64,000 nucleotides of DNA from Bacilli bacterium (GTDB lineage: Bacteria; Bacillota_I; Bacilli_A; RFN20; CAG-826). The first letter of the stretch is position 1, and every line of letters starts with the position of its first letter. This document shows, one piece after another, positions 7,617-21,114 of this stretch. The position numbers and the translations under genes are program-made. The notes beneath the pieces are model-generated. The model was not told the DNA's origin and ran no database searches. It saw only the letters and a list, made by a program, of their open reading frames with translations. The stretch covers positions 5,587 through 69,586 of the forward strand of contig JAFYAZ010000039.1 in the NCBI GenBank assembly GCA_017540455.1, in the 5' to 3' direction.

Positions 7617-8354
7617 TTACTCGTTTATCATTCCTTTTTTGTAGAACTTGAGCTTTCTGCTCATGGAAGCGTTGATGTCCATGATGTCTTTCTCTTCTAA
7701 GCAGATGACGGTGACTTTGAGCTCCTTATACACCTTCATCTTGTAATTCTTCGATTTGGTGTATTCTTTGTTGCTCTCGTTGTATCCCCAGTATTCGATA
7801 TAAACATCATCTGTGTCGTCTCCATAGCCAGGGAGGCAGAAATCAGGATGAAGGTCATGATTCTCATTGGCGTCAATCGGAAGCTTTTTCTCGTAAGCGT
7901 GAGGAATGTTATGGTCAAAGAGCCAGTTGTCGATGATCATCTCGGACTTTGATTTAACGATGTGGCCGTCGGTGCAAGTGAACTTGCCCTCGTAGGAATC
8001 GTCAAGGATGGTGATGTCCTTGCATTTGTTGATCTCGACAAGCAACTTCTTATCGGCATATTTCTTGTAACAGGAAACACAGAAAAGGAATCCTGGCTTG
8101 GTTTCTTTACCGCAGGCAATGCATTTGGCAACACCCTTTTGCTCCTGAATAGGTTTTTCCTCTTTAGGCTCGACATAATCCTTGTTGAGGACTTTGCCAG
8201 TCGCTTTATCGATGAAGAGGCCTTTTTCGTTGACCACAATCTTTTCGGCCTTGAGTTCGTCGGCATGCTTGGCGCAAAGCCTGTCTTTGCGGGCATTGCC
8301 CATATAGACTCTCGTAGGTTGTCCACAGATAGGGCACTTCAACTCTTCCTTCAT
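7617..8354 (-). CDS. zinc-ribbon protein with C-terminal PD-(D/E)xK (Vsr/DUF559-like) nuclease-fold domain
   Basis: 245 aa. It has CPICG...C..H and CIACG...CVSC zinc-ribbon pairs. The C-terminal SKSEMIIDNWLFDHNIPHAYEKKL...HPDFCLP...VYIEYWGY matches the S.SE / YE / PDF / hEhhG pattern of restriction-endonuclease-fold domains. A GGGAGG RBS precedes the start, which lies 16 nt upstream of the helicase gene. Confidence 0.6.
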   Translation of the reverse strand: MKEELKCPICGQPTRVYMGNARKDRLCAKHADELKAEKIVVNEKGLFIDKATGKVLNKDYVEPKEEKPIQEQKGVAKCIACGKETKPGFLFCVSCYKKYADKKLLVEINKCKDITILDDSYEGKFTCTDGHIVKSKSEMIIDNWLFDHNIPHAYEKKLPIDANENHDLHPDFCLPGYGDDTDDVYIEYWGYNESNKEYTKSKNYKMKVYKELKVTVICLEEKDIMDINASMSRKLKFYKKGMINE

Positions 8355-8480
8355 AACGATATGCCTCCCTTGGTTGGCTTAATGGAGAACTTAAGTATCT
8401 CCATTGTTGTTTTGGTTTTCTGGAAATATATTAGCAAAAAGGAGGCGACGATTAATAGGTTTCCTTACAATCCGTTTAGA

Positions 8481-8549
8481 AAAAAGCCCCCTACTACTTA
8501 AGTAAGGGGCTGATTCATGCAGGATTTGCTAGGGATTATTTGGCTTCGG
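8481..8549. repeat. 69-bp direct repeat, copy B (right boundary of island; functional 3' end and terminator of gene 8536..11613)
   Basis: See copy A. This copy includes the stop codon at 8536-8538 and the last four codons of the 1025-aa gene. Confidence 0.9.
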
Positions 8550-11500
8550 TTGTTTTGGAGCCGTAGTTAAGAACCTTGACGAAGTCTTCCTCAGTCATTG
8601 GACGACCGAACAAGTAACCTTCAAGTCCTTTGGCGCCAAGAGAGATGGCAAGATCCCTTTGCTCAGCGTTCTCGATACCGGTGACGTAGATGTCGAAGTC
8701 GTTTCTCATCGCTGCATCTAGGAAGCGTGAGAAGTTAGCAAGCTCGTTTTCGTTCGTGGCCGCATTCCAGATGAGAGATCTCTCGGTCTTGATGATATGG
8801 ACGCCGAAGGATTTAAGGACCTCAAGAGGAACCTTATCTGGCGTGTGGTCGACACATTCGAAGACAACGCCAAGAGGCGTGAGCTCGGACATGACCTTCT
8901 TGATGGCCTCTTCCTCGTCGAGGAAGAAGGCGCTATTGATTTCAAGATGCATGTACTCACGTGGGAAGCGGTTCCTTTCGAGAATGGCTTTGACCTTCTC
9001 TGGGAATTCTGGGTCCCTAAGGGAGTCGATGGAAAGATACATCGAAAGACACTTGATGCCGACGGCTTTGAAGATGCCTGAACCATATAAGCTATAGAGC
9101 TGACCCATCATCGAGATGGCGCCGATATCGACGCGGGAGACGAGTTTTTCTTTGTTCGCGATAGGAATGAATTCACGAGGAGCGATCGGGAGTTTGTCAC
9201 GTCCATAAAGGGCGGAACGGATATCGCCTCCGATGACCTTGAGGGTGCCGCAGTCGACGATTGGCTGAGTGAGGATCGGAAGGGCGTCAGCGTCAAGCGT
9301 AGCCTGGAGGATATCGAGGATGTACTCGCTTCTCAGGGCTTTTCTTGGGTGGCGGTTTGCGACCTCGACGACATAGCCTGGGCCATAGGTCCTCTCACTT
9401 CTGATGAGCTCGTCTTTGATGGTCTGGACCATTTGCTTGGTGGTGACGATTTCAGATGGGTATGCGACGGCGCAGAAAGCGTAGTTGGCGTTGTATCTGA
9501 ATTCCCTGGCTTCAAGAGGATGGGAAAGGATCTCCGCCGCTTCTTCGACGAAGTCCATCATCTTGATCTTGGTGTAGCCCTTAAGGAGGAAGGAGATGCT
9601 ATATGTGTCGAACCTGTAAAGGAGTTCGCCATAGCCAGCATCCTGGAAGTTGGCGACGATGGAGGACATAAGCGAGTTCGCATCGGACTGCGGGAGCTCT
9701 CTTAAGGCCGCCTCGTAATCGACGAGGGAGCAAGAGACGATATAACCGCGGGCGGTCTTGGCTTTGAGCTCACGGTTGACATCGATTGAAAGAGCCTGGG
9801 CGTTCTTGATGAGGAGGGAATCATCGACAAGATGGCTTCCGGCGACAAGGCCTTGGGTCGTGCCACGCTCGATCATGATGGTCGATTCGTCGTTATTCGC
9901 TCCACGGTACTGGAGAATCGAGATCTGGGATTCGGATGGGCCGATGCTTGGGATGACACGGTGATCAGCGCCGTATCTAAGAGGGCAATGGCTGCATGGT
10001 TTGTCATGGCCTGTACGAAGTACCTTGTAGCAGATATCGCCTTCGTGAGCGCCTGGGAAGGCGTGCTTAAGGTTATCCGACATGTAAGTGATCGTATGGG
10101 TCGGACGGTCGACGGAATAGAGGTATCTGCTGGTTCTAGAGGCAAGGTTATCGAGAAGGTCATGGAGGGAATCGTCTCTCTTAGCGAGGATGTTGCCGAT
10201 GAGCATGTTGCTGAAGAAAGAGACCGCGGTCATGAAGTCTTCTTTGCTAGAAATCGAGGTTCCACTTCTCTTATTCGGAGAAAGCATGTAGATGAAACCG
10301 TAGTCGTTATTTGGGGAATCAAGGGTGGCGATGAAGAAAGACTCCATTCCTAAGGAAAGGATTGGCTCTGCGAGTTCTTTTGGAAGATCGGTGCGGGCGT
10401 TGCCGACGAACATCGTGTCTTTCTTCGCTTCGTTCACAAATGGGCCGACGAATGATAGATGGAGAACGGAACCGAAACGGGAGAAGCCTTTGTTTCCTTC
10501 GACACGAGCAGTCTCAAAGAGGAGACGGTAGTCTCTTGTCTTCTCACCATATTCATAGACGCCGGCGACTTCAAAATCGCTTTGGGTCATGAGCCACTGG
10601 ATGGCGTTCTTCAGGGCTTCGATCTCGCCTGCGTAATCCTTCGCGTGCTTGATCTCGTATTCCCATTTCTCGAAGTTGGCGAGGAAGAGAATGCGTTTGG
10701 AGGATTCGCTTAAGATGCGGTGAGGATAGTAGACGTCTTTGACGCCGTAGCTGAGATTGACTTCCCCTTCTTCTTTGAGGGCTTTCTCAGCTTCATCTAA
10801 GAAGTTATTGAGGGAGCAATACGGATAGATGACTCCGCCGATTTTGGCATGGACAAACTTCTCAACTGAAGTCGACTTATCGATCTTCAAAACGTTGAAA
10901 TTCGTGACAAATCCCTCACAAACCGTCTCTAAACCGAGGAAGGATTCGACGTTGAAGATATAAAGGGCGAGGGTCTTTTCATCGTATTTGCCAAGCATCG
11001 AATGAGGGAAGGTTTCTCTCACTTTGGCGGTCAAGGCTTCGAAGTCTTTTTCTTCGTAGGTCTTCGCGCCCTCTAAAGAGATCAAGAGGAGAGCGCTTCG
11101 ATATGAATCGTTCTTCTGGACTTCTTTCTTTAAGTTCTCGGTGAATGTCTCTTTGTCATAGACAAGACCCTGTTCGATGTCTTTATTGATAGCCTCGTCG
11201 CTAGCTTTGCCAACATAGACAAGACGGTAGTTGGAATAGTCGGCGATCGCCTGGTTCATCTGCTGCTGAATCTCAGTGAAAGCAGGGAGAACCTTGTCAT
11301 AGTCCTTGTTGATGGTCAAGAAGTTGCCATCGGCGAAGCTTCTGATCTGGGAACTGATGTCTTTGGCGAGCTTATCACCTTTCCTTGTGTAATCAAGGCC
11401 AAGATGGATGATGGTGACCGCAACCGTCAAAGCGGAGATGAGGAGGACGCCAAAACTCACCCATAAAAGGATTTTGTTCTCAAAATAGTAGGCAAATGGG

Positions 11501-11613
11501 ATGCCAACGGCCGAAATGACGAATAAGCCAAGGAAGACGGCGCCGACCACTGTCGAAGCGCGGTTCTTAAGGAAGGCCTTAAGATTGACGAGTTTGGTTT
11601 TGTTCTTTTTCAT
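8536..11613 (-). CDS. membrane protein with degenerate GGDEF-like region(s), a Cys-rich sensor segment and a degenerate (probably non-catalytic) EAL domain; candidate c-di-GMP receptor
   Basis: 1025 aa with two N-terminal TM helices. The C-terminal EAL-fold is recognisable (LTQPIVD..., REFIPIA, LEGYLFGRPM). Its key motifs are substituted: EAL becomes SAL, ELTE becomes LEINS, DDFG becomes VDHTP, and EGVE becomes TGIE. There is no GGDEF/GGEEF signature. A CYKV..PCSHCP motif sits mid-protein. Confidence 0.6.
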   Translation of the reverse strand: MKKNKTKLVNLKAFLKNRASTVVGAVFLGLFVISAVGIPFAYYFENKILLWVSFGVLLISALTVAVTIIHLGLDYTRKGDKLAKDISSQIRSFADGNFLTINKDYDKVLPAFTEIQQQMNQAIADYSNYRLVYVGKASDEAINKDIEQGLVYDKETFTENLKKEVQKNDSYRSALLLISLEGAKTYEEKDFEALTAKVRETFPHSMLGKYDEKTLALYIFNVESFLGLETVCEGFVTNFNVLKIDKSTSVEKFVHAKIGGVIYPYCSLNNFLDEAEKALKEEGEVNLSYGVKDVYYPHRILSESSKRILFLANFEKWEYEIKHAKDYAGEIEALKNAIQWLMTQSDFEVAGVYEYGEKTRDYRLLFETARVEGNKGFSRFGSVLHLSFVGPFVNEAKKDTMFVGNARTDLPKELAEPILSLGMESFFIATLDSPNNDYGFIYMLSPNKRSGTSISSKEDFMTAVSFFSNMLIGNILAKRDDSLHDLLDNLASRTSRYLYSVDRPTHTITYMSDNLKHAFPGAHEGDICYKVLRTGHDKPCSHCPLRYGADHRVIPSIGPSESQISILQYRGANNDESTIMIERGTTQGLVAGSHLVDDSLLIKNAQALSIDVNRELKAKTARGYIVSCSLVDYEAALRELPQSDANSLMSSIVANFQDAGYGELLYRFDTYSISFLLKGYTKIKMMDFVEEAAEILSHPLEAREFRYNANYAFCAVAYPSEIVTTKQMVQTIKDELIRSERTYGPGYVVEVANRHPRKALRSEYILDILQATLDADALPILTQPIVDCGTLKVIGGDIRSALYGRDKLPIAPREFIPIANKEKLVSRVDIGAISMMGQLYSLYGSGIFKAVGIKCLSMYLSIDSLRDPEFPEKVKAILERNRFPREYMHLEINSAFFLDEEEAIKKVMSELTPLGVVFECVDHTPDKVPLEVLKSFGVHIIKTERSLIWNAATNENELANFSRFLDAAMRNDFDIYVTGIENAEQRDLAISLGAKGLEGYLFGRPMTEEDFVKVLNYGSKTTEAK

Positions 11614-11624
11614 GGCCTTTCTCC

Positions 11625-12356
11625 TTATTCGTTGACATCCTCAGTGCGGGCCACGAGGATTCGGGTGATGATCTTGCCGATTGTCGGCATCATCTCTAAG
11701 CCCGTGCGGATGTAGTTGATTCTTTCGCGTTCTTTGCCCATTTGCATCGCGACGCCTTTGATGGTCAAAAGGGCGGTGTTGTTAAGATGGCAAACCATCG
11801 CGATAGCGGCGCTTGTGTTGTCGTAAGCGCGCATGTTCTCTTCTTGGACGAGGAAGTGGTTTTGGACGATGGTTGAGACCTTATTCGGCATGAAATAGAA
11901 AGAGGAACCAGAAAGAAGGAAGCCTCTTTGGACGTATCTCGTCGTCATGAGATAAGCGTTCTTCTCAGCGCGGTCATTGATAAGGTTATCGGCGACGAAG
12001 AATGGGTCTCTTCCTGGGATTTGGCCATAGACGGCCTCTTTGTTATCGGTGAAATCGATGTCAGCGTAGAAATAACGGTCGGCGATGAATAAATCCCCTT
12101 GGCGGAGTTCGTCGCTGAAGCTATAGACCGAGCCGACATTGAAGACCATGTATGGGTCGAACTTCTCGATGATGAGGGTCATGATGATGCCGGCATCAAC
12201 AAGAGATGGTCCTGTCGCGGCAACGATGCAATCCTCACGGAAAATGCTGCCCTGATAGACTTTGAAGCCTCCGGTCAGGGTCACTTCTTTCGGATTCCCC
12301 ATCTTCGCTTTGAAATAGAGGATGTCGTCGCTAGTCGTACCGATTATGGCGATCAT
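11625..12356 (-). CDS. MTA/SAH nucleosidase (Pfs/MtnN, PNP_UDP_1 fold)-like protein, divergent
   Basis: 243 aa. It aligns by eye with E. coli MtnN: IAIIGTTSDD vs IGIIGAMEEE, YGQIPGRDPFFVAD vs YGQLPGCPAGFKAD, and SAAIAMVCH vs ATAIAHVCH. The region of the catalytic ISD(V) reads VAMQMG. Its start overlaps the stop of the upstream EAL gene (ATGA). Confidence 0.55.
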   Translation of the reverse strand: MIAIIGTTSDDILYFKAKMGNPKEVTLTGGFKVYQGSIFREDCIVAATGPSLVDAGIIMTLIIEKFDPYMVFNVGSVYSFSDELRQGDLFIADRYFYADIDFTDNKEAVYGQIPGRDPFFVADNLINDRAEKNAYLMTTRYVQRGFLLSGSSFYFMPNKVSTIVQNHFLVQEENMRAYDNTSAAIAMVCHLNNTALLTIKGVAMQMGKERERINYIRTGLEMMPTIGKIITRILVARTEDVNE

Positions 12357-13927
12357 TTGGCTACCTCCCCTGCTTTCTTCTTCTCGAATGGGTTATTGCT
12401 AAGGAATCTCTGGAATTCGAATTCGCCAAGCGGGCGGCTATAGTAATAGCCTTGGACGGCGTCGATGCCAAGTTCCTTGACGATGTTCTTCTGGATCTCG
12501 GTTTCCACGCCTTCGGCGATGGTCTTCATGCCTAAGGAATGTGAGATGTCATTGATGCAACGGACAAGGTCGCGGCTCTTCTGGTCAAGCTCAACCTCAT
12601 CGATGAAGGACTTATCGATCTTAAGGGTGTCGAAAGGAATCTTCTTTAAGGAAGAGAAAGCCGAATAGCCCATACCGAAGTCATCGATTGAGGTATCAAG
12701 GTCAAGGGCTTTGATCTTTCTGATCATGGCTGAGACGAAGACGGCGTCTTGAGCGGCCATGGATTCGGTGAGCTCAATCTCAATCCATTTAGGATTGATC
12801 TCGTATTTCTCCATCGTTTCCTTATAGAAAGAGAGGATATCTGGCGCAAGAGCGGTTTTTCTGGAAAGGTTGATGGAGACCTTAGGGATACGTTTTCCTT
12901 CGGCCTTCCACTTCTTCATGTTCTTGCAGACCTGCTCGAAGACGTATTTATCGACCTCGATGATACGGCCGGATTGCTCAGCGAACGGGATGAAGAGGGA
13001 TGGAGGGAGAAGACCACGGGATGGGTGGTTCCATCTGACAAGGGCTTCAGCGCCGAAGAAGGTTTCGTCATGAAGGTCGAATTTAGGCTGATAGAAGACT
13101 TGGAGCTGCTCTTCGTTGATGGCGTTGCCTAGTTCGCTAGAAAGGGAACGTTCGCCTTCATCATCCATCATGAATTCCTCGCTATAGACGATGACGTCGC
13201 TAGAGATACGGGATGAGAGGTTATAGGTGCCGGCGATTTGGGCTTTGCTATAGACGTCTTCGAAAGGCTGGCCATGATGGGCGTGATAGACGCCGCAAAG
13301 GATAGCGACATCAGGCATTGTGCCATCTTTCTCGAGGAGATAATTGACTCTTTGGCAGATGGACTGGAGCTCTTCGATGAAAAGGGATTCCTCCCCTCCT
13401 TTTTTGATGAGGATCCAACCCTTGGTTGGGGAGAAACCATAAGCGTAGTTCTTATTGTCTTTGCCAACCGCCTCATGTATCGCGGCATATAAAGCGTCGT
13501 TGATGATACGCGGTCCTTTTTGGCCATAGATGCTACGGAGTCGGGCGATGTTTCTGACATCGAGGACGGCAAAGAGGGATTCCGCTTTCCTTCTAAGCAT
13601 CATGTAGCGATAGTTCTGCTTCAAAGCAGATTCATTGAAGATATAGATCTCCTTCGTGAAGTTGTCTTTGGCGATATCTCTATCTATCGCCGACATCGCA
13701 AGGACGTTCTGGTAGAGAAGGGAGACGACGATGAGAACGGCGTTGACGATGATGGTGACATAAAGGCTGACGATGAAACCAGGCTTGTAGTAGCCTCTGA
13801 TCATGATCGTGTAAAGGATGATTGAGGCGATGGTGTTGATGCCTAAAAGGAGATAGATGATATAGGCGTTCCTCTGGTGGGTCTTATAAGAGAAACGGGA
13901 AGCGAAAAAGTTAAGTAATCGTCTCAT
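12353..13927 (-). CDS. membrane-bound c-di-GMP phosphodiesterase (degenerate GGDEF + canonical EAL)
   Basis: 524 aa with two N-terminal TM helices. The GGDEF position reads GFSPT, so it is degenerate. The full EAL signature set is present: QPKF, EALVRW, SINLS, EIELTES, DDFGMGYS, KIDKSF, EGVET and QGYYYSRP. Its start overlaps the sipW-like stop. Confidence 0.8.
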   Translation of the reverse strand: MRRLLNFFASRFSYKTHQRNAYIIYLLLGINTIASIILYTIMIRGYYKPGFIVSLYVTIIVNAVLIVVSLLYQNVLAMSAIDRDIAKDNFTKEIYIFNESALKQNYRYMMLRRKAESLFAVLDVRNIARLRSIYGQKGPRIINDALYAAIHEAVGKDNKNYAYGFSPTKGWILIKKGGEESLFIEELQSICQRVNYLLEKDGTMPDVAILCGVYHAHHGQPFEDVYSKAQIAGTYNLSSRISSDVIVYSEEFMMDDEGERSLSSELGNAINEEQLQVFYQPKFDLHDETFFGAEALVRWNHPSRGLLPPSLFIPFAEQSGRIIEVDKYVFEQVCKNMKKWKAEGKRIPKVSINLSRKTALAPDILSFYKETMEKYEINPKWIEIELTESMAAQDAVFVSAMIRKIKALDLDTSIDDFGMGYSAFSSLKKIPFDTLKIDKSFIDEVELDQKSRDLVRCINDISHSLGMKTIAEGVETEIQKNIVKELGIDAVQGYYYSRPLGEFEFQRFLSNNPFEKKKAGEVAK

Positions 13928-14985
13928 TGCTTTTCTCCTTCCTTAGCGAATTCGGCTAAAATCTTAGCCTTCTCTTCTTGCTTTATCCTTTCAAGCTCCT
14001 CCGATTTGGCGAGTTCTTCTTTGGCTTTCTTGAATTCTTCGAGGAAGAGGGCCTTCTGCTCTTGCTTCATGGCTTCCATCTCTTTCTCGATCTCTTTTCT
14101 CATCTGGTATTTCTCTTTGAAGATGAGGACGGCTTTCTCGTCGGTTGGATCGATACCGGCGGCAAGCATCTCCGCTTTCATCTCGTCTTCCTCTTTCTTC
14201 TTCTCGACGCGGTATCCCTTGATGAAATCAACGACCGTCATGCCTCCGATGATGAGGATTGGGACGAGGATGGCGACTGGGACGAACCAGACGCTTTGGA
14301 CGGTATGGAGGACGCCTCCGAAGAAGTGGCTATGTGAGATGACGTTGCCAACGTAGTACTTCGATTGGACGGTGTCCCTATATGTTGATTCAACGGCTTT
14401 GCCGGTGACTTTGGTGTACCATTCGGCGTTGAGGTTGTCGCCGCAGGTGTAGAAAGTCATCTCGGATTTGCCACTCCAGTTAGGGATGATATGGGTGAGG
14501 GTGTGCTCTTTGTCTTCTTTTGAGCGGGTCTGGAAGGATTTGCCTTCTTCGAGCTCTACGGTTTCGCCACCAGTGAACCAGGTAATACCGCTATCGATGG
14601 TATATTCGAAGGCAGGAGAGACTTCGAAAGAGCCTTTTTCCCCTGCTTTTGCTGGGGATTCCACGATTTCGATGACACGGTGGGAGACGCAGTATCCGAT
14701 CGCGTCGCTATAGAAGGCGATGATCTCGCCGGCTTTTACATCGTTAACGTCTTTCTTCTGGATGACGACGCCTTCGCCCGCGTCAAAGGAATCAGGATTC
14801 TTCCCTTCCATTGAGTCGGTGAGGACTTCCATGAAGCTATAGCCGAAAAGAGATGGGATGCCATAGTTGTTGTTCTTGGTGATGAACATATCAATCTGAA
14901 GTCCCAAAATCAAAACGATGAGGGCACCGAGGATGATGTCCACGATCTTCGAGGCGATTTTTTTCTTCTTCTTTTGCTCTTCCAT
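13924..14985 (-). CDS. sipW: SipW-type (ER/archaeal-type, S26B) signal peptidase I with large insertions and a C-terminal TM + E/K-rich coiled-coil tail
   Basis: 353 aa. It has an N-terminal TM, the catalytic-Ser box VLTDSMEG (cf. SGSMEP), the His box SHRVIEI and the GDN box TCGDNLNAEW. A second TM (VWFVPVAILVPILIIGGMTVV) is followed by ~100 aa of KE-rich predicted coiled coil. It is about twice the length I recall for B. subtilis SipW. Confidence 0.7.
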   Translation of the reverse strand: MEEQKKKKKIASKIVDIILGALIVLILGLQIDMFITKNNNYGIPSLFGYSFMEVLTDSMEGKNPDSFDAGEGVVIQKKDVNDVKAGEIIAFYSDAIGYCVSHRVIEIVESPAKAGEKGSFEVSPAFEYTIDSGITWFTGGETVELEEGKSFQTRSKEDKEHTLTHIIPNWSGKSEMTFYTCGDNLNAEWYTKVTGKAVESTYRDTVQSKYYVGNVISHSHFFGGVLHTVQSVWFVPVAILVPILIIGGMTVVDFIKGYRVEKKKEEDEMKAEMLAAGIDPTDEKAVLIFKEKYQMRKEIEKEMEAMKQEQKALFLEEFKKAKEELAKSEELERIKQEEKAKILAEFAKEGEKQ

Positions 14986-14989
14986 CTAA

Positions 14990-17041
14990 CTATTTGGCTT
15001 TCTTGATGCGGAAAACTTTTTCTTTGCTCTCTGGCTTCTCTTCTTTGGCGTCTTTCTTCACCTTGATGAACTTCGGCGAAGCGGCTTTGTTTTGCTCAGC
15101 GTGAGGACTACCGACGAAGGTGATATGTCCGAATGGGTCGGTCTTGATTCCGCCGATATCGAGTGCGTACTTCGAATAACCCCTACGGACGCGGACCACG
15201 GTAGGCGTGATCTTCTCGATTTTTTTGCTTGGGGCGATGATGGTCACTGTCTTTCCTCTTTCTTCTTCGGAGCGTTTCTCTTTTTCGACTTCGGCAAGGC
15301 GGGCTTTGTTCTTCTCTTCTTCGGCGAGCCTTTCTTCAAGTTCGGCGATTCGTTTGGCTTGGGACTCGTTTTCCTTCTGGAGCGCCTCTAACTGTTCTTT
15401 GTCGGCGTTATATTGCTCGAGCGGAACGGTGAAGGTCTGTCCATCGGAGAGGGCTTCTTCGGAGGCTGTCTCAACTGGAGCAGACTCCCCTGCAGCTTCT
15501 TCAGCGAGTGGCTCTGGTCCTTCGACGATTGGAGCAGGTCTACCCTTGGCGAGCTCATCGGCGATCGATTCATCAAGAGGAGCGTCTTCTTGCGCCATAG
15601 CGAGGATTCTTTCGCGGGCTTCTTTGAGGAGTTCGTTTTCTCTCGCTAAACGGATCTCGGTCTCGATTCTGATTTTTTCTTCGAGCTCACGGAGTTTCTG
15701 GGCTTCTTCTTCTTGGCGTTTGGCTTCAGCCGCAGCGCGTTCTTCTTCGAGTTGCTTCTCTTCCGCTTTACGGCGTTCCATCTCGGCGATGATGGCTTCC
15801 TGATCCATGAAGTTTCTCTCTTCTTCGGCTTGTTCACGGAGCTCTTTGGCGGTGAGCATCTCGGCGGTCAGGTATTCGTTGTCGCTTTCTTTGAAGGCTT
15901 TGACCTCGTCTGGGGTCCAGGCGAAATCCTTCTCTTCTGGCTCTCTTTCTGGGGTGACAAGAAGGGATTCGTGCTCTGGGAACTGGTCGTAGCGGAACTT
16001 ATGGGAAAGGAAGGTCTCATCCTCAAGAGAAAGCATGACCTTTGGCTCAAAATGCTTGGTCATCGCTTTGGCGGATTCCTTCTCATCCTTGGTTTTGACT
16101 TTTCTGTTGTCGATGAGGTGGGTATGGAGGGTGGCCATTGAGGCAGCGGTTAACCCATAGACCTCATTGAAGTAGCTCTCATCGAATTCGCCCTTCTTCT
16201 CCTCAATATCGAAGGAGATGCCGAGTTTGGTGTATGAATCGATGAACTTCCAAAGGACCGCGACTTTGTGGTAGTCAGGGTTCTTTAAAAGGAGGTTGGT
16301 CATCTGGAGTGGTGAGTGGACACTTTTGGCGTCCTTCATCTCCTCCATGAATGGGGACTTGATATAGAAGTTGACGCGTTCGGAAAGGTTCTTGATACGG
16401 GCAAGGAGCATCTTGTTCTTCTCGTATTCGCCTTTATCGTCGGATTCGATGGAGATCTTGATGCGATTATCGACTTCGTAACGGACTCCATCGATCTCGG
16501 TCTTTGAGTGGATGAAAAGAACATCGGAGTTACGGGTCTCACCCTTATCCGAGATGAACTGGACACGTTTCTCAACGAAGAAAGTGAGTCGCTGGATGAG
16601 AGACATAAGAACGCGGTTCTCATAGATCTGCATATCGACGTCGGAGCCGATTGAGAGAATGCGTTCAGGGACGATCTGGCCTTGCTTGTTGAAGCCATGG
16701 ATATAACGGGTATGGGACGCTAGATGGCGGATGGAGGTTGAGTTGATACGCTTGGCCTGTCCTGCTAAGACGAGATCCTGCGTCTCCTTGATGAAGGTAC
16801 GAGGATGGGCGATGATGCGGTCGATCGCGTCAAAGCCGGTGTCGAGCTCGGTGACCCATTTGTCGTCGTAGGTCTTGTTTTCGTGGCGGTTCCTTTGGAA
16901 AACACTGTTCTCCCCGGTCTTCTTGATGGCCTCAACGAACGACTTGAAAGGAAGGCTTCCCTTCAAGAGGGAATCCATCTTCTTCATGTAGTCAGCATGA
17001 ACGCGCGTCAGTTTTGCGGTGTCTTTTTCCTTTTTGGCCAT
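14990..17041 (-). CDS. 683-aa coiled-coil protein, partner of the McrB-like ATPase (McrC-position; no nuclease motif seen)
   Basis: The N-terminal ~340-aa globular part contains ...DMQIYENRVLMSLIQRL..., reminiscent of the (T/P)ENR-hydrophobic motif of McrC/DUF2357 N-domains. Residues ~370-620 are an E/K/A-rich coiled coil. The C-terminus is basic. It lies immediately downstream of the McrB-like gene. Confidence 0.45.
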   Translation of the reverse strand: MAKKEKDTAKLTRVHADYMKKMDSLLKGSLPFKSFVEAIKKTGENSVFQRNRHENKTYDDKWVTELDTGFDAIDRIIAHPRTFIKETQDLVLAGQAKRINSTSIRHLASHTRYIHGFNKQGQIVPERILSIGSDVDMQIYENRVLMSLIQRLTFFVEKRVQFISDKGETRNSDVLFIHSKTEIDGVRYEVDNRIKISIESDDKGEYEKNKMLLARIKNLSERVNFYIKSPFMEEMKDAKSVHSPLQMTNLLLKNPDYHKVAVLWKFIDSYTKLGISFDIEEKKGEFDESYFNEVYGLTAASMATLHTHLIDNRKVKTKDEKESAKAMTKHFEPKVMLSLEDETFLSHKFRYDQFPEHESLLVTPEREPEEKDFAWTPDEVKAFKESDNEYLTAEMLTAKELREQAEEERNFMDQEAIIAEMERRKAEEKQLEEERAAAEAKRQEEEAQKLRELEEKIRIETEIRLARENELLKEARERILAMAQEDAPLDESIADELAKGRPAPIVEGPEPLAEEAAGESAPVETASEEALSDGQTFTVPLEQYNADKEQLEALQKENESQAKRIAELEERLAEEEKNKARLAEVEKEKRSEEERGKTVTIIAPSKKIEKITPTVVRVRRGYSKYALDIGGIKTDPFGHITFVGSPHAEQNKAASPKFIKVKKDAKEEKPESKEKVFRIKKAK

Positions 17042-17082
17042 GGTTTAAAAGAGTTTGCTCGGGGGTTTTTATAGGTTAAAGA

Positions 17083-18669
17083 TTAACCAACGTCCTTGAG
17101 GAAGCCGGCGATCTTGGCTTTGGACATCTTGAACTCGGCTTTGCCAAAGAGCTTGGTGAGCTTGGCATCGAGTTCGATTAAGTCATCGCGTAAGTGGGCG
17201 ATGTTAAGGGATTCGAATTTCTTTAAGATCTTCGTGGCGAAGATGTAGTCAACGCCTTCAAGTTCGGTTCCGCCGGTGGCGACGTAGCATGGGACGAAGG
17301 CATTGAGCTGCTTAAGAATACGGTTACCAAAGGCAAGCTTAAAGTGTTGGATGACAAAGTCATCGAGCTCAGTGAACTTCTCTAAGGTCTTTCCGGAGAT
17401 TGGGAAGTTGCTATTGGCTTCGGCATAAAGCTTCATTAAGTATTCGAATGGGAGAGGGAGACCCTCGGTGAATGGCGCTTCAAAGGCGATACCTTTGTTA
17501 TCGAAGAAGAGCGACATAGCACGGTCATAGACCTTATCGGTGATGGTGAAGGTCGAGTCATCGTTGTTCGCGGTGCCGATGAACCAGACGTTCTGAGGGA
17601 TGAGAAGCTTACCATCATGGAGGTGCTTAGGATCGTCTTTCTGCGGGGAAGAGATGAGGTCGATGTTCCAGGCCGATGGGTTAGGCATTTCCATGATGGA
17701 AAGGAATTCGGCGAAGTAGTACTCGATACGGGCGATGTTCATCTCATCGAGGACGATGAGGTTGATGTCCTCTCTGAAGGTGGATTCGTAGATGCTTCTT
17801 AAGAATTCGGTCTCGGTGAACTTCTTGGTGAAGTCGTTGTAGAAGCCTAAGAGCTCGGAACGGTCACGCCAGGAAGGCTGGACGGAGCAGATGGTGCAGT
17901 TGTTCTGGAAGAATTTCCCCAAAGCGTATGGCAAAGAGGTTTTACCTGTACCGGAAATACCTTCGAGAATGATGATCTTGCCGGTTCCCATGGAAGCGAA
18001 GAAAGCGCGCATGGCTGGGATGGTGTAATAGAGTTTGAGCTGGGAAGCGGCGTAGTTTCTGAATCTTTCGACGATTTCCTGAAGGGAGATGTCGGTTGCG
18101 TCTGCTGGAAGTTCGACATGGGTGGAAATCTCAGCGTATTTCTCGTCGACGGCGATAAGACGAGGGAATCTGACGTCTTTCTCGCCTGGGACCCCTCCTT
18201 CTTCCGTTTCTTCGGTTTCTTGAGCGTTAGAAGAGGTGGAAATCTCGCTAGAACCTCCGACAGAGATCGATTCGGATGGGGATAGGCCAAGGGAATCGAG
18301 CTGGAGGCCAAGGATTCTGTTCTTTTCTTGGGTGGCGTTATAGAGTTCGATCTGAAGGTTCTGGACTTCTTCGCGGAGTCTTTCGCGATCGATCTCGGTG
18401 CGGTAGAACTTGATGTATTTTCTAAGCAGCCAATAGATGAGGAAAACGAGTGCGCCTATCGCTGCGACGAAGAAAATGGCAAAGAGGACGAAGAAGAACC
18501 AGCCCCAGAAGCCAAAACCGCTGGCGAAATTGTCGAAAATGATTCCGTACTGGACGAAATCATCTGGGACATCGGCCCACGGGACGGCCCATCTCTGGTT
18601 CAGCCATCTGCCGAAATTGGATAATACGGCGACGACCATTTCACGAAGGTAATTGAAATAGTTTTCCAT
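17083..18669 (-). CDS. membrane-anchored McrB-family (AAA_5) AAA+ NTPase
   Basis: 528 aa. An N-terminal TM helix (FGFWGWFFFVLFAIFFVAAIGALVFLIYWLL) is followed by a short coiled coil and an acidic/Ser linker. The AAA+ core has Walker A LEGISGTGKTS and Walker B plus the McrB signature LIVLDEMNIARIEYYFAEFLSIME (cf. E. coli McrB FIIDEINRANLSKVFGEVMMLME). It also has IPQNVWFIGTANNDDS...VYDRA (cf. VPENVYIIGLMNTADRS). No DNA-binding N-domain was recognised. Confidence 0.7.
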   Translation of the reverse strand: MENYFNYLREMVVAVLSNFGRWLNQRWAVPWADVPDDFVQYGIIFDNFASGFGFWGWFFFVLFAIFFVAAIGALVFLIYWLLRKYIKFYRTEIDRERLREEVQNLQIELYNATQEKNRILGLQLDSLGLSPSESISVGGSSEISTSSNAQETEETEEGGVPGEKDVRFPRLIAVDEKYAEISTHVELPADATDISLQEIVERFRNYAASQLKLYYTIPAMRAFFASMGTGKIIILEGISGTGKTSLPYALGKFFQNNCTICSVQPSWRDRSELLGFYNDFTKKFTETEFLRSIYESTFREDINLIVLDEMNIARIEYYFAEFLSIMEMPNPSAWNIDLISSPQKDDPKHLHDGKLLIPQNVWFIGTANNDDSTFTITDKVYDRAMSLFFDNKGIAFEAPFTEGLPLPFEYLMKLYAEANSNFPISGKTLEKFTELDDFVIQHFKLAFGNRILKQLNAFVPCYVATGGTELEGVDYIFATKILKKFESLNIAHLRDDLIELDAKLTKLFGKAEFKMSKAKIAGFLKDVG

Positions 18670-20997: not shown

Positions 20998-21110
20998 ACC
21001 CAGTTGCCCACTGAATCTAGAGTACTGAACTCCAGGCAACTGGCTACCACGCATATATTGCGAGGCCCTGTAGCTTTGCGTCGCCATGTTTCCATGGGTT
21101 TGCTATACAC
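20998..21110 (-). promoter_or_regulatory. c-di-GMP-I (GEMM-I) riboswitch aptamer
   Basis: The minus-strand RNA is GCGUGUAUAGCAAACC-CAUG-GAAA-CAUG-GCGACGCAAAGCUACAGGGCCUCGCAAUAUAUGCGUGGUAGCCAGUUGCC. It contains GCAAACC, a GAAA-capped stem, the near-invariant GACGCAAAGC, the second helix GCUAC...GUAGC and a trailing CAGUUGCC. This matches my memory of Vc2 and Bacillus GEMM-I sequences. Confidence 0.8.
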
Positions 21111-21114
21111 GCAT

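Follow-up and report, generated by a model that had tools for sequence, protein, structure and literature searches.

The gene considered here encodes a 683-amino-acid (aa) protein on the minus strand of a 64,000-nucleotide (nt) stretch of contig JAFYAZ010000039.1 from a Bacilli bacterium; the whole of this stretch is referred to as the window. The protein is the McrC homologue of a CoCoPALM system, a class that is known in outline and uncharacterised: it was named in one paragraph by Bell, Sahakyan, Makarova, Wolf and Koonin (eLife 2024; PMC11090510), who deferred its analysis. The open reading frame (ORF) is genuine and correctly placed, as the first-pass annotation of the window had it. It runs from 17041 to 14990 on the minus strand and opens with an ATG codon and the N-terminus MAKKEKD, and the choice of start codon agrees with an alignment of 49 homologues, in which M1 is invariant and the N-terminus conserved. 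A gap of 41 nt separates it from the stop codon of the gene for a 528-aa ATPase, a McrB-like nucleoside triphosphatase (NTPase), and this gap (17042-17082, minus strand; …gagcaaactcttttaaaccATG) holds no clear Shine-Dalgarno sequence before the ATG; its own stop codon falls 4 nt ahead of the start of a 353-aa SipW-like gene. The McrC position given to the gene in the earlier annotation is confirmed, since it lies directly after the gene of the McrB-like NTPase and this order is kept in relatives.

The family of McrC homologues comprises 1445 clusters (50% identity) at E<=1e-3 and 988 at E<=1e-10. A transmembrane (TM) segment was found in 0/65 of the McrC homologues tested, and the 683-aa protein likewise has no TM segment and is, by its sequence, soluble and cytoplasmic. 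By composition and AlphaFold2 (AF2) modelling, the protein divides into five parts, namely the N-domain, helix 1, a linker, helix 2 and a tail. The AF2 models are of moderate confidence overall, and local confidence is given below as pLDDT, the value predicted for the local distance difference test. The gene and its parts are as follows.

14990..17041, minus strand, stop codon included: gene of the nuclease-less McrC homologue (CoCoPALM 'McrC'), an ORF of 683 aa with 193 homologues.
15962..17041, minus strand: conserved globular N-domain, residues 1-360, from alignments and the AF2 model (pLDDT 71.8).
16460..16831, minus strand: Pfam PF09823 (DUF2357) match, residues 71-194 (26.4 bits).
16646..16807, minus strand: residues 79-132, strongly conserved with pLDDT<50, a candidate McrB-contacting 'tip' (putative role).
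16613..16624, minus strand: signature motif Y140-E141-N142-R143, at the start of the 36-residue helix 131-166, from the alignment.
16445..16534, minus strand: residues 170-199, predicted long two-stranded, stalk-like beta hairpin (AF2 strands 170-183 and 186-199).
15974..16033, minus strand: residues 337-356, conserved linear motif LSLEDETFLSHKFRYDQFPE, in the poorly ordered region that ends the N-domain.
15551..15913, minus strand: helix 1, residues 377-497, a predicted charged rod of 121 residues (AF2, pLDDT 80-90).
15584..15640, minus strand: distal motif, residues 468-486, from the alignment of 49 sequences.
15419..15550, minus strand: acidic, Pro-containing disordered linker, residues 498-541 (44 aa), from composition and AF2; hypervariable, with indels.
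15257..15418, minus strand: predicted helix 2, residues 542-595, 54 residues (AF2).
14993..15256, minus strand: basic, predicted-disordered tail, residues 596-683, ending KVFRIKKAK (pLDDT ~33).

The N-domain is the only part of the protein that is conserved family-wide, and its globular part ends near residue 355-356. The globular N-terminal region of some 340 residues described in the first-pass annotation is therefore real and conserved, and its length is corrected to about 355 aa. Searched on their own, residues 1-360 match PF09823 with 26.4 bits (E=5e-6; profile positions 94-217 of 251), above the Pfam gathering cut-off of 23.3 bits for this family. A six-frame search of the 1.16-Mb genome finds PF09823 at 25.1 bits, and this is the sole DUF2357 in the genome. 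The full-length 683-aa protein has no Pfam match at all, presumably because the tail interferes. Among relatives, DUF2357 is matched in 8/22 close and 26/68 diverse sequences, with a best E-value of 5.8e-13. DUF2357 is the N-terminal domain of McrC, which binds and activates McrB (Bell et al., PMC11090510), and it is this statement together with the Pfam match that links the protein to canonical McrC. On the strength of the profile match, the N-domain is assigned to DUF2357, the McrC N-terminal type.

Conservation within the N-domain is concentrated in a few places. The motif DMQIYENRVLMSLIQRL, which the earlier annotation had likened to the ENR-hydrophobic motif of McrC/DUF2357 N-domains, is present in the protein as quoted; no change is seen at Y140, E141 or N142 across 136 diverse relatives, with identity down to 24%, and R143 is kept in at least 90%. 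Within the putative tip, the columns P80, R81, F83, I84, A96, K97, S103, L107, A108, H110, P125, I128 and L129 are invariant. At the end of the domain, the motif LEDETF...KF.YDQFP (337-356) carries an invariant D341, and E342, F349, Y351 and F354 are at least 90% conserved. The AF2 model of the domain predicts helices at residues 11-42, 60-78, 131-166, 206-227, 255-269 and 288-307, and long strands at 44-58, in the hairpin 170-199 and at 275-284. The finger domain of McrC is built of a helical bundle, a long beta-sheet stalk and a loop-helix-loop tip (PMC7680126), and the modelled N-domain resembles it in kind, as a qualitative likeness.

The nuclease that defines a canonical McrC is missing. 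Searches with Pfam and NCBIfam find no PD-(D/E)xK or other nuclease family in either the full-length protein or the N-domain, in agreement with the earlier reading of the sequence, and a nuclease domain is found in 0/68 diverse relatives, which show isolated matches of other kinds (one Rho_N, one Big_2). Beyond residue 360 the AF2 model consists of helices and disorder. Residues 195-355 are modelled as helical with one strand and lack an alpha-beta-beta-beta-alpha-beta core, and with this helical topology the segment is not a degenerate nuclease core. A remnant PD-(D/E)xK site was considered in the same segment, aligning F-D287-E-S with V-D257-A-K of E. coli McrC, and was rejected (probability 0.2%; AF2 helical there). 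As far as domain profiles can tell, the loss of the nuclease is a property of the whole clade.

In the place of a nuclease, the protein carries a long C-terminal arm. A coiled coil of about 250 aa had been proposed for this region; long charged helices are indeed predicted, but there are two of them (121 + 54 = 175 aa) with the 44-aa linker between, and their heptads are weak. The strictly hydrophobic occupancy of heptad positions a and d is <=0.26 in helix 1 and <=0.47 in helix 2, or about 0.5 when Ala is counted, and the E+K+R content of the two helices is 45-54%. The weak heptad core supports helical rods and does not demonstrate a true coiled coil, and we accordingly describe helices 1 and 2 as predicted helical rods. 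Helix 1 is constrained in length. Across 49 homologues of the window's subfamily it shows <=4% gaps, mostly none, even at 20-29% identity, and in the same subfamily 101-117 residues lie between the F354-P355 motif and E468, against total lengths of 596 to 850 aa. At its end stands the distal motif E468-x3-L472-x3-R476-E-x-[IV]-x3-A483-x2-D486, in which E468, L472 and R476 are invariant and A483 and D486 are at least 90% conserved in the 49 sequences. The motif occurs at the equivalent place in 28/141 diverse representatives and is absent from the sampled remote families. Such a spacer of constrained length, with a conserved patch at its far end, points to a docking site kept at a defined distance from the NTPase ring.

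Beyond residue 497 the protein evolves fast and with indels. The 'basic C-terminal domain' of the first-pass annotation is basic (residues 616-683 have a net charge of +10) and predicted to be disordered rather than a domain; it is conserved only among close relatives (>=95% N-domain identity), at 50-98% identity, and a Lys/Arg-rich end is common to most homologue tails. McrC homologues range from 371 to 1596 aa, compared with 497-572 aa for the NTPase, which is also the better conserved of the two (56-68% versus 38-47% identity at equal divergence). Variation in the system is thus located in the C-terminal extension. Pfam searches of very long relatives (1001-1622 aa) return DUF2357 only and give no clue to tail function from fusions. 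Two very long McrC homologues, of 1308 and 1596 aa (L028:7974-11900 and L047:6556-11346), carry in their tails four to six copies of an unannotated module of ~170 aa, with the consensus elements ...ERVSIKGDLFSAHRK.LVF..LSG.HIK..LALDP..Y.DS..PVE.N...K..DTPLLFR..SDLS..RA..LI.E...; here too Pfam finds only DUF2357. Other tails (P0031 residues ~520-715, P0054 and P0071) repeat short units that resemble beta hairpins, such as G-R-Y-V-T-F-Y-D-R-K-G-x-F-H-K-F-K-L (four copies) and G-R-K-I-K-A-E-F-I-N-S-K-G-R-R-V-V-I-Y-E-K. The repeats yield a spurious POLO-box match, and the window protein has only a faint counterpart of them (VVRVRRGYSKYALDIGGIKTDPFGHITFVG).

The gene belongs to an operon on the minus strand that also holds genes for TasA-like secreted proteins and for EAL-type phosphodiesterases of cyclic di-GMP (c-di-GMP). 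It is headed by a c-di-GMP riboswitch, and its main features are the following.

21143-21115, minus strand: promoter-like site at the operon start, from a promoter scan.
21032..21114, minus strand: c-di-GMP-I riboswitch at the operon head (RF01051, 56.5 bits against a gathering score of 35).
17083..18669, minus strand: membrane-anchored McrB-like NTPase, 528 aa, with a TM segment at ~55-82, Walker A GISGTGKT and the motif GTAN-N-D-D.
13924..14985, minus strand: SipW-type signal peptidase with a cytoplasmic E/K-rich tail, 353 aa (NF046067 match).
8511-8485, minus strand: terminator-like strong hairpin at the operon end, from a terminator scan.

The NTPase aligns with E. coli McrB by BLASTP at E=7e-7, from Walker B through the N-T-A-D loop; in an ungapped comparison with E. 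coli McrB, its N-N-D-D is also readable as NxxD. The motif GTAN[NKR]DDSTF is present in every CoCoPALM-type NTPase homologue, and the CoCoNuT-like paralogue has GTANRDESTF. An N-terminal TM segment (residues 53-61 onward) is found in 59/59 McrB homologues and is followed by a charged helix. The SipW gene matches NF046067 (3.6e-14) and TIGR02228 (2.4e-10), both below the curated cut-offs.

The gene order is conserved well beyond the window. All 47 close loci (47/47; 38-99% identity) have TasA-like, TasA-like, McrB-like, McrC-like, SipW, EAL, Pfs-like and EAL genes in this order wherever the contig reaches. In a sample of 18 loci from remote genome families, at 21-37% N-domain identity, 15 have the McrB-McrC pair beside SipW and two to five TasA-like genes, often with a second SipW upstream and two EAL genes nearby; SipW directly follows McrC in 13 of the 18 and stands one gene further on in 3. 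The McrC homologue directly follows the McrB gene wherever McrB is detected alongside, in close and remote loci. At one locus (L085) the McrC homologue, SipW, TasA-like and EAL genes are present and no McrB was detected; the other two loci that depart from the pattern are L083 and L093.

Several further arrangements were observed among the loci. In the remote families (L080-L097), two SipW paralogues bracket McrB-McrC, one directly upstream of McrB and one after McrC, with three to five TasA-like and two EAL genes upstream; a single, long-tailed SipW is found in the window's lineage. Locus L083 (G046:C1:1609500-1626300) carries a CoCoNuT-like pair without SipW or TasA neighbours (genes 12650..9939 and 9946..8381, minus strand), in which the McrB-like protein has 903 aa and the motif GTAN-R-D-E, and its DUF2357-related partner has 521 aa and weakly matches a zinc ribbon. 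Pairs of this type are frequent as a second system in the same small genomes and are the nearest paralogous system to the CoCoPALM pair. At L093 (G244:C1:86500-99764, 7879-12244), a McrC-like gene (565 aa) lies between two McrB-like genes (419 and 468 aa), both shorter than usual, and no SipW or TasA was detected in the fetched stretch.

Charged helices recur in the neighbouring proteins. The first-pass annotation noted E/K-rich helices in the SipW tail and after the TM segment of the ATPase, and the sequences bear this out. Its further proposal, a cytoplasmic scaffold shared with the SipW tail, finds no echo in the lengths of the two proteins, as McrC and SipW lengths are uncorrelated (Spearman 0.14, p=0.34, n=50) and in several remote systems the SipW encoded downstream of a long-tailed McrC is short (194-220 aa). 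With lengths unlinked and short SipW proteins beside long tails, contact of the McrC arm with the SipW tail, if there is any, would be lineage-specific at best. McrC tail length shows no clear co-variation with McrB length either (rho 0.27, p 0.06).

The distribution of the system was surveyed in 399 genomes of the phylum. The N-domain is present in 69/399, all of one class, with genomes of 0.8-2.4 Mb. In some families the system is near-universal (24/30, 7/7, 4/4 and 10/11), a picture that differs from the patchiness usual for defence islands. None was found in those families in which McrC-family matches include in-frame TGA codons. The genome of the window (1.16 Mb, 92% complete) has no transpeptidase of the penicillin-binding protein (PBP) type (PF00905) and no FtsW/RodA (PF01098), and because of these absences the host probably lacks a cell wall. 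Lineages mostly without PBPs often have the system, yet it also occurs in PBP-bearing family f15, as seen from the following counts.

Family f1: PBP in 1/42 genomes; system in 10/42.
Family f5: PBP in 1/30 genomes; system in 24/30.
Family f8: PBP in 0/7 genomes; system in 7/7.
Family f10: PBP in 0/4 genomes; system in 4/4.
Family f15 (tail-less McrC form): PBP in 16/16 genomes; system in 7/16.

Several operon-bearing contigs come from bins that bear other names, among them Bacteroides uniformis, Escherichia coli, Faecalibacterium prausnitzii and Alistipes (L018-L024, L029, L037, L038 and L048). These are most likely mislabelled or contaminated 'cleanbin' records of metagenome-assembled genomes rather than cases of horizontal transfer.

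Taken as a whole, the protein is probably the nuclease-less McrC of a membrane-anchored motor that is tied to a SipW/TasA-like fibre, an explanation that we hold with reasonable, though far from full, confidence. By analogy with the McrBC complexes of E. coli and T. gammatolerans (PMC7680126, PMC6624300), the NTPase hexamer, on the cytoplasmic side of the membrane, would take up one N-domain in its pore, and this domain would stimulate nucleotide hydrolysis, one active site at a time, by means of a conserved basic residue; R143, R159, K208 and K253 are conserved candidates for this role. As there is no nuclease, the motor would not cleave DNA, and its output would be of a mechanical or regulatory kind. 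The arm of helices may act as a spacer of fixed length that offers the distal motif, along with the basic tail, to a partner, which could be the membrane surface, a second complex or, in the window's lineage, the SipW tail. Hydrolysis of NTP would then be coupled to the SipW-dependent processing, export or assembly of a TasA-like fibre at high c-di-GMP. In its fullest form, put forward tentatively and with less than even confidence, this describes a restriction motor exapted as the cytoplasmic engine or checkpoint of a surface fibre: McrC would combine a GTPase activator with a 'ruler' arm of fixed length, its helix of ~120 residues, with the conserved distal motif for docking, linking the membrane-tethered McrB ring to SipW or the membrane. 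In Bacilli with small genomes and for the most part no wall, NTP hydrolysis would then gate how TasA-like fibres are processed or assembled, with c-di-GMP in control.

Several observations weigh against this explanation, beginning with the likeness to McrC itself, which stands at the level of the Pfam profile and was not recovered by comparison of structures. A Foldseek search of the PDB with the AF2 N-domain (predicted template modelling score, pTM, 0.54) gives no hit at E<0.001 and no McrC in the top 50, a result that leaves similarity to McrC possible because the model is only moderate. Aligned by hhalign with a profile of 26 PF10117-type McrC sequences built from fetched loci, the N-domain reaches E=0.14, which is not significant; the single aligned stretch places YENR on L-A-N106-R107 of E. 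coli McrC. Against E. coli McrC alone the hhalign probability is 0.2, again not significant, and phmmer and profile searches of PDB sequences return only low-complexity noise from the charged helices. The similarity of the N-domain to solved McrC structures is thus only suggestive, and the earlier description of the domain as McrC/DUF2357-like stands for DUF2357, where the match is above threshold. As for the arm, the heptad pattern is weak in both helices, and natural tail-less forms of McrC exist that consist of the N-domain only (371-376 aa; L087 and L088). The arm is thus dispensable in some lineages and no part of the core mechanism. The NTPase matches the defence-candidate model PDC-M26A of PADLOC. 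The system is patchy in the window's family (10/42) and genus (3/11 besides the window's own), and patchiness in its own genus is compatible with an accessory or defence role. Finally, the interaction of McrC with the NTPase and the stimulation of GTPase activity are drawn from analogy, and a dependence of the TasA-like proteins on the motor is conjectural.

A function in defence or conflict is the main rival. The McrB/McrC pair would here be an anti-phage or conflict module like CoCoNuT, in which the motor, at the membrane, detects infection or foreign nucleic acid and the arm relays the signal to non-nuclease effectors (membrane, peptidase or surface remodelling), with the fibre genes as effector or linked cargo. 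Ancestry from Type IV restriction speaks for such a module, as do the score of the ATPase against PDC-M26A (8.5e-38), the patchy occurrence in genus and family, and the frequent presence of a CoCoNuT-like paralogue, as at L083, in genomes that carry the system. We nevertheless consider it unlikely. No nuclease, HEPN or toxin domain was found in the protein or its 68 relatives, and the protein itself matches no PADLOC model. In relatives that range from 25 to 100% identity the pair shows an ancient and tight linkage to SipW, TasA-like and c-di-GMP genes; several families have it almost without exception, and it lies under a c-di-GMP riboswitch, which is typical of lifestyle rather than defence genes.

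A different alternative is that of a passive scaffold, to which we give little weight. DUF2357 would merely anchor to the ATPase ring without regulating hydrolysis, and the helices would be single alpha-helices, ER/K-like spacers that tether the ring to the membrane via the basic tail. The weak heptad core, the ruler-like constraint on helix length, the basic disordered tail common in the family and the fast evolution of the C-terminal parts are all consistent with this; the E+K+R content of 45-54% has been counted on the same side, but it is well below that of classical ER/K helices. Against it, the residues under strongest conservation (YENR, R159, K253 and 79-132) belong to the N-domain, a pattern that fits a functional interface better than a mere anchor, and the minimal homologues without a tail imply that the conserved function resides there too. 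That the protein is unrelated to McrC, a generic coiled-coil protein of the SMC/Rad50 kind with a spurious DUF2357 match, is highly improbable. One JGI name on a relative (P0039), 'DNA repair protein SbcC/Rad50', suggests it, and so do the negative Foldseek and hhalign comparisons with canonical McrC; the name is explained by the charged helices, no ATPase head domain is present, DUF2357 scores above its curated cut-off in the N-domain and in 26/68 relatives (best E-value 5.8e-13), and the place directly after a McrB-type NTPase is invariant.

The reading as a nuclease-less McrC of a fibre-linked motor carries implications beyond the locus. McrBC is the textbook GTP-driven restriction nuclease, and here a clade of at least 988 clusters (50% identity, E<=1e-10) has shed the nuclease entirely. 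The clade is bound up instead with a membrane anchor, a signal peptidase and secreted fibre-like proteins, under c-di-GMP control, and this suggests re-use of the motor beyond DNA cutting; an exapted fibre motor, if true, would be the first non-defence, non-nucleic-acid function for a McrBC-type machine. With a constant part (DUF2357, YENR and 79-132) and a variable part (helix, distal motif and basic tail) defined, the class becomes experimentally approachable, and the tail-less variants of 371-376 aa offer a ready-made minimal construct. Taken alone, the present finding contributes details of anatomy and does not establish a new kind of system.

Membership in CoCoPALM follows from comparison with its published outline, in which a large clade of CoCoNuT-like NxD GTPases is fused to an FtsB-like TM and coiled-coil region, the NxD is usually followed by E or a second D, McrC 'usually' has a coiled-coil extension, and the McrC homologues of the branch are often without a nuclease entirely (PMC11090510). 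The window shares with it a McrB-like GTPase of NxD type with an N-terminal TM segment and helix, an associated gene of the signal-peptidase family, long predicted helical extensions on both the McrB and the McrC homologue (those of McrC, at pLDDT 80-90, are rods of weak heptad core rather than a demonstrated coiled coil) and a McrC homologue without a PD-(D/E)xK nuclease; no feature contradicts membership. No later paper using the name CoCoPALM was found in the literature searched, nor one tying McrB to SipW biologically. Beyond Bell et al., the present analysis adds the family-wide absence of the nuclease and the tail-less forms of 371-376 aa, the constrained length of helix 1 with its distal motif, the conserved linkage to EAL and c-di-GMP, and the occurrence in mostly small-genome Bacilli, often without PBPs.

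With canonical McrC (E. coli K-12 and T. gammatolerans; PMC7680126, PMC6624300), the window protein has in common its place directly after a McrB-type NTPase, an N-domain of DUF2357 kind with a predicted helical bundle and long beta strands, and an N-R motif with which a long helix begins, as part of YENR in the window protein and of L-A-N-R in that of E. coli. It differs in the lack of PD-(D/E)xK, a domain that in E. coli also mediates the McrC dimer bridging two hexamers, in the 320 extra residues of helices, linker and basic tail, and in a partner NTPase that is membrane-anchored and without a DNA-binding domain; there is no significant sequence-profile or Foldseek similarity to canonical PF10117 McrC. 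CnuC of CoCoNuT is similar in its partner GTPase of the NxD clade, in adding coiled-coil-like helices to DUF2357 and in the frequent loss or inactivation of PD-(D/E)xK, and a CoCoNuT-like pair co-occurs in related genomes (L083). Unlike in CnuC, however, the helices of the window protein follow DUF2357 rather than being inserted in it; searches of the protein and the operon turned up no Ig-like N-domain, zinc ribbon or CSD and no partner of the HEPN or another nuclease type, and the operon partners are a signal peptidase and secreted proteins. In this last respect the locus is closest to the SipW-TasA/TapA operon of B. subtilis and the SipW-BsaA/B/C operon of C. perfringens (PMC11580942), which likewise join a SipW-type peptidase to several TasA-like secreted paralogues. 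Those operons have no cytoplasmic NTPase pair, and the McrB/McrC-derived module is the addition that distinguishes the system described here.

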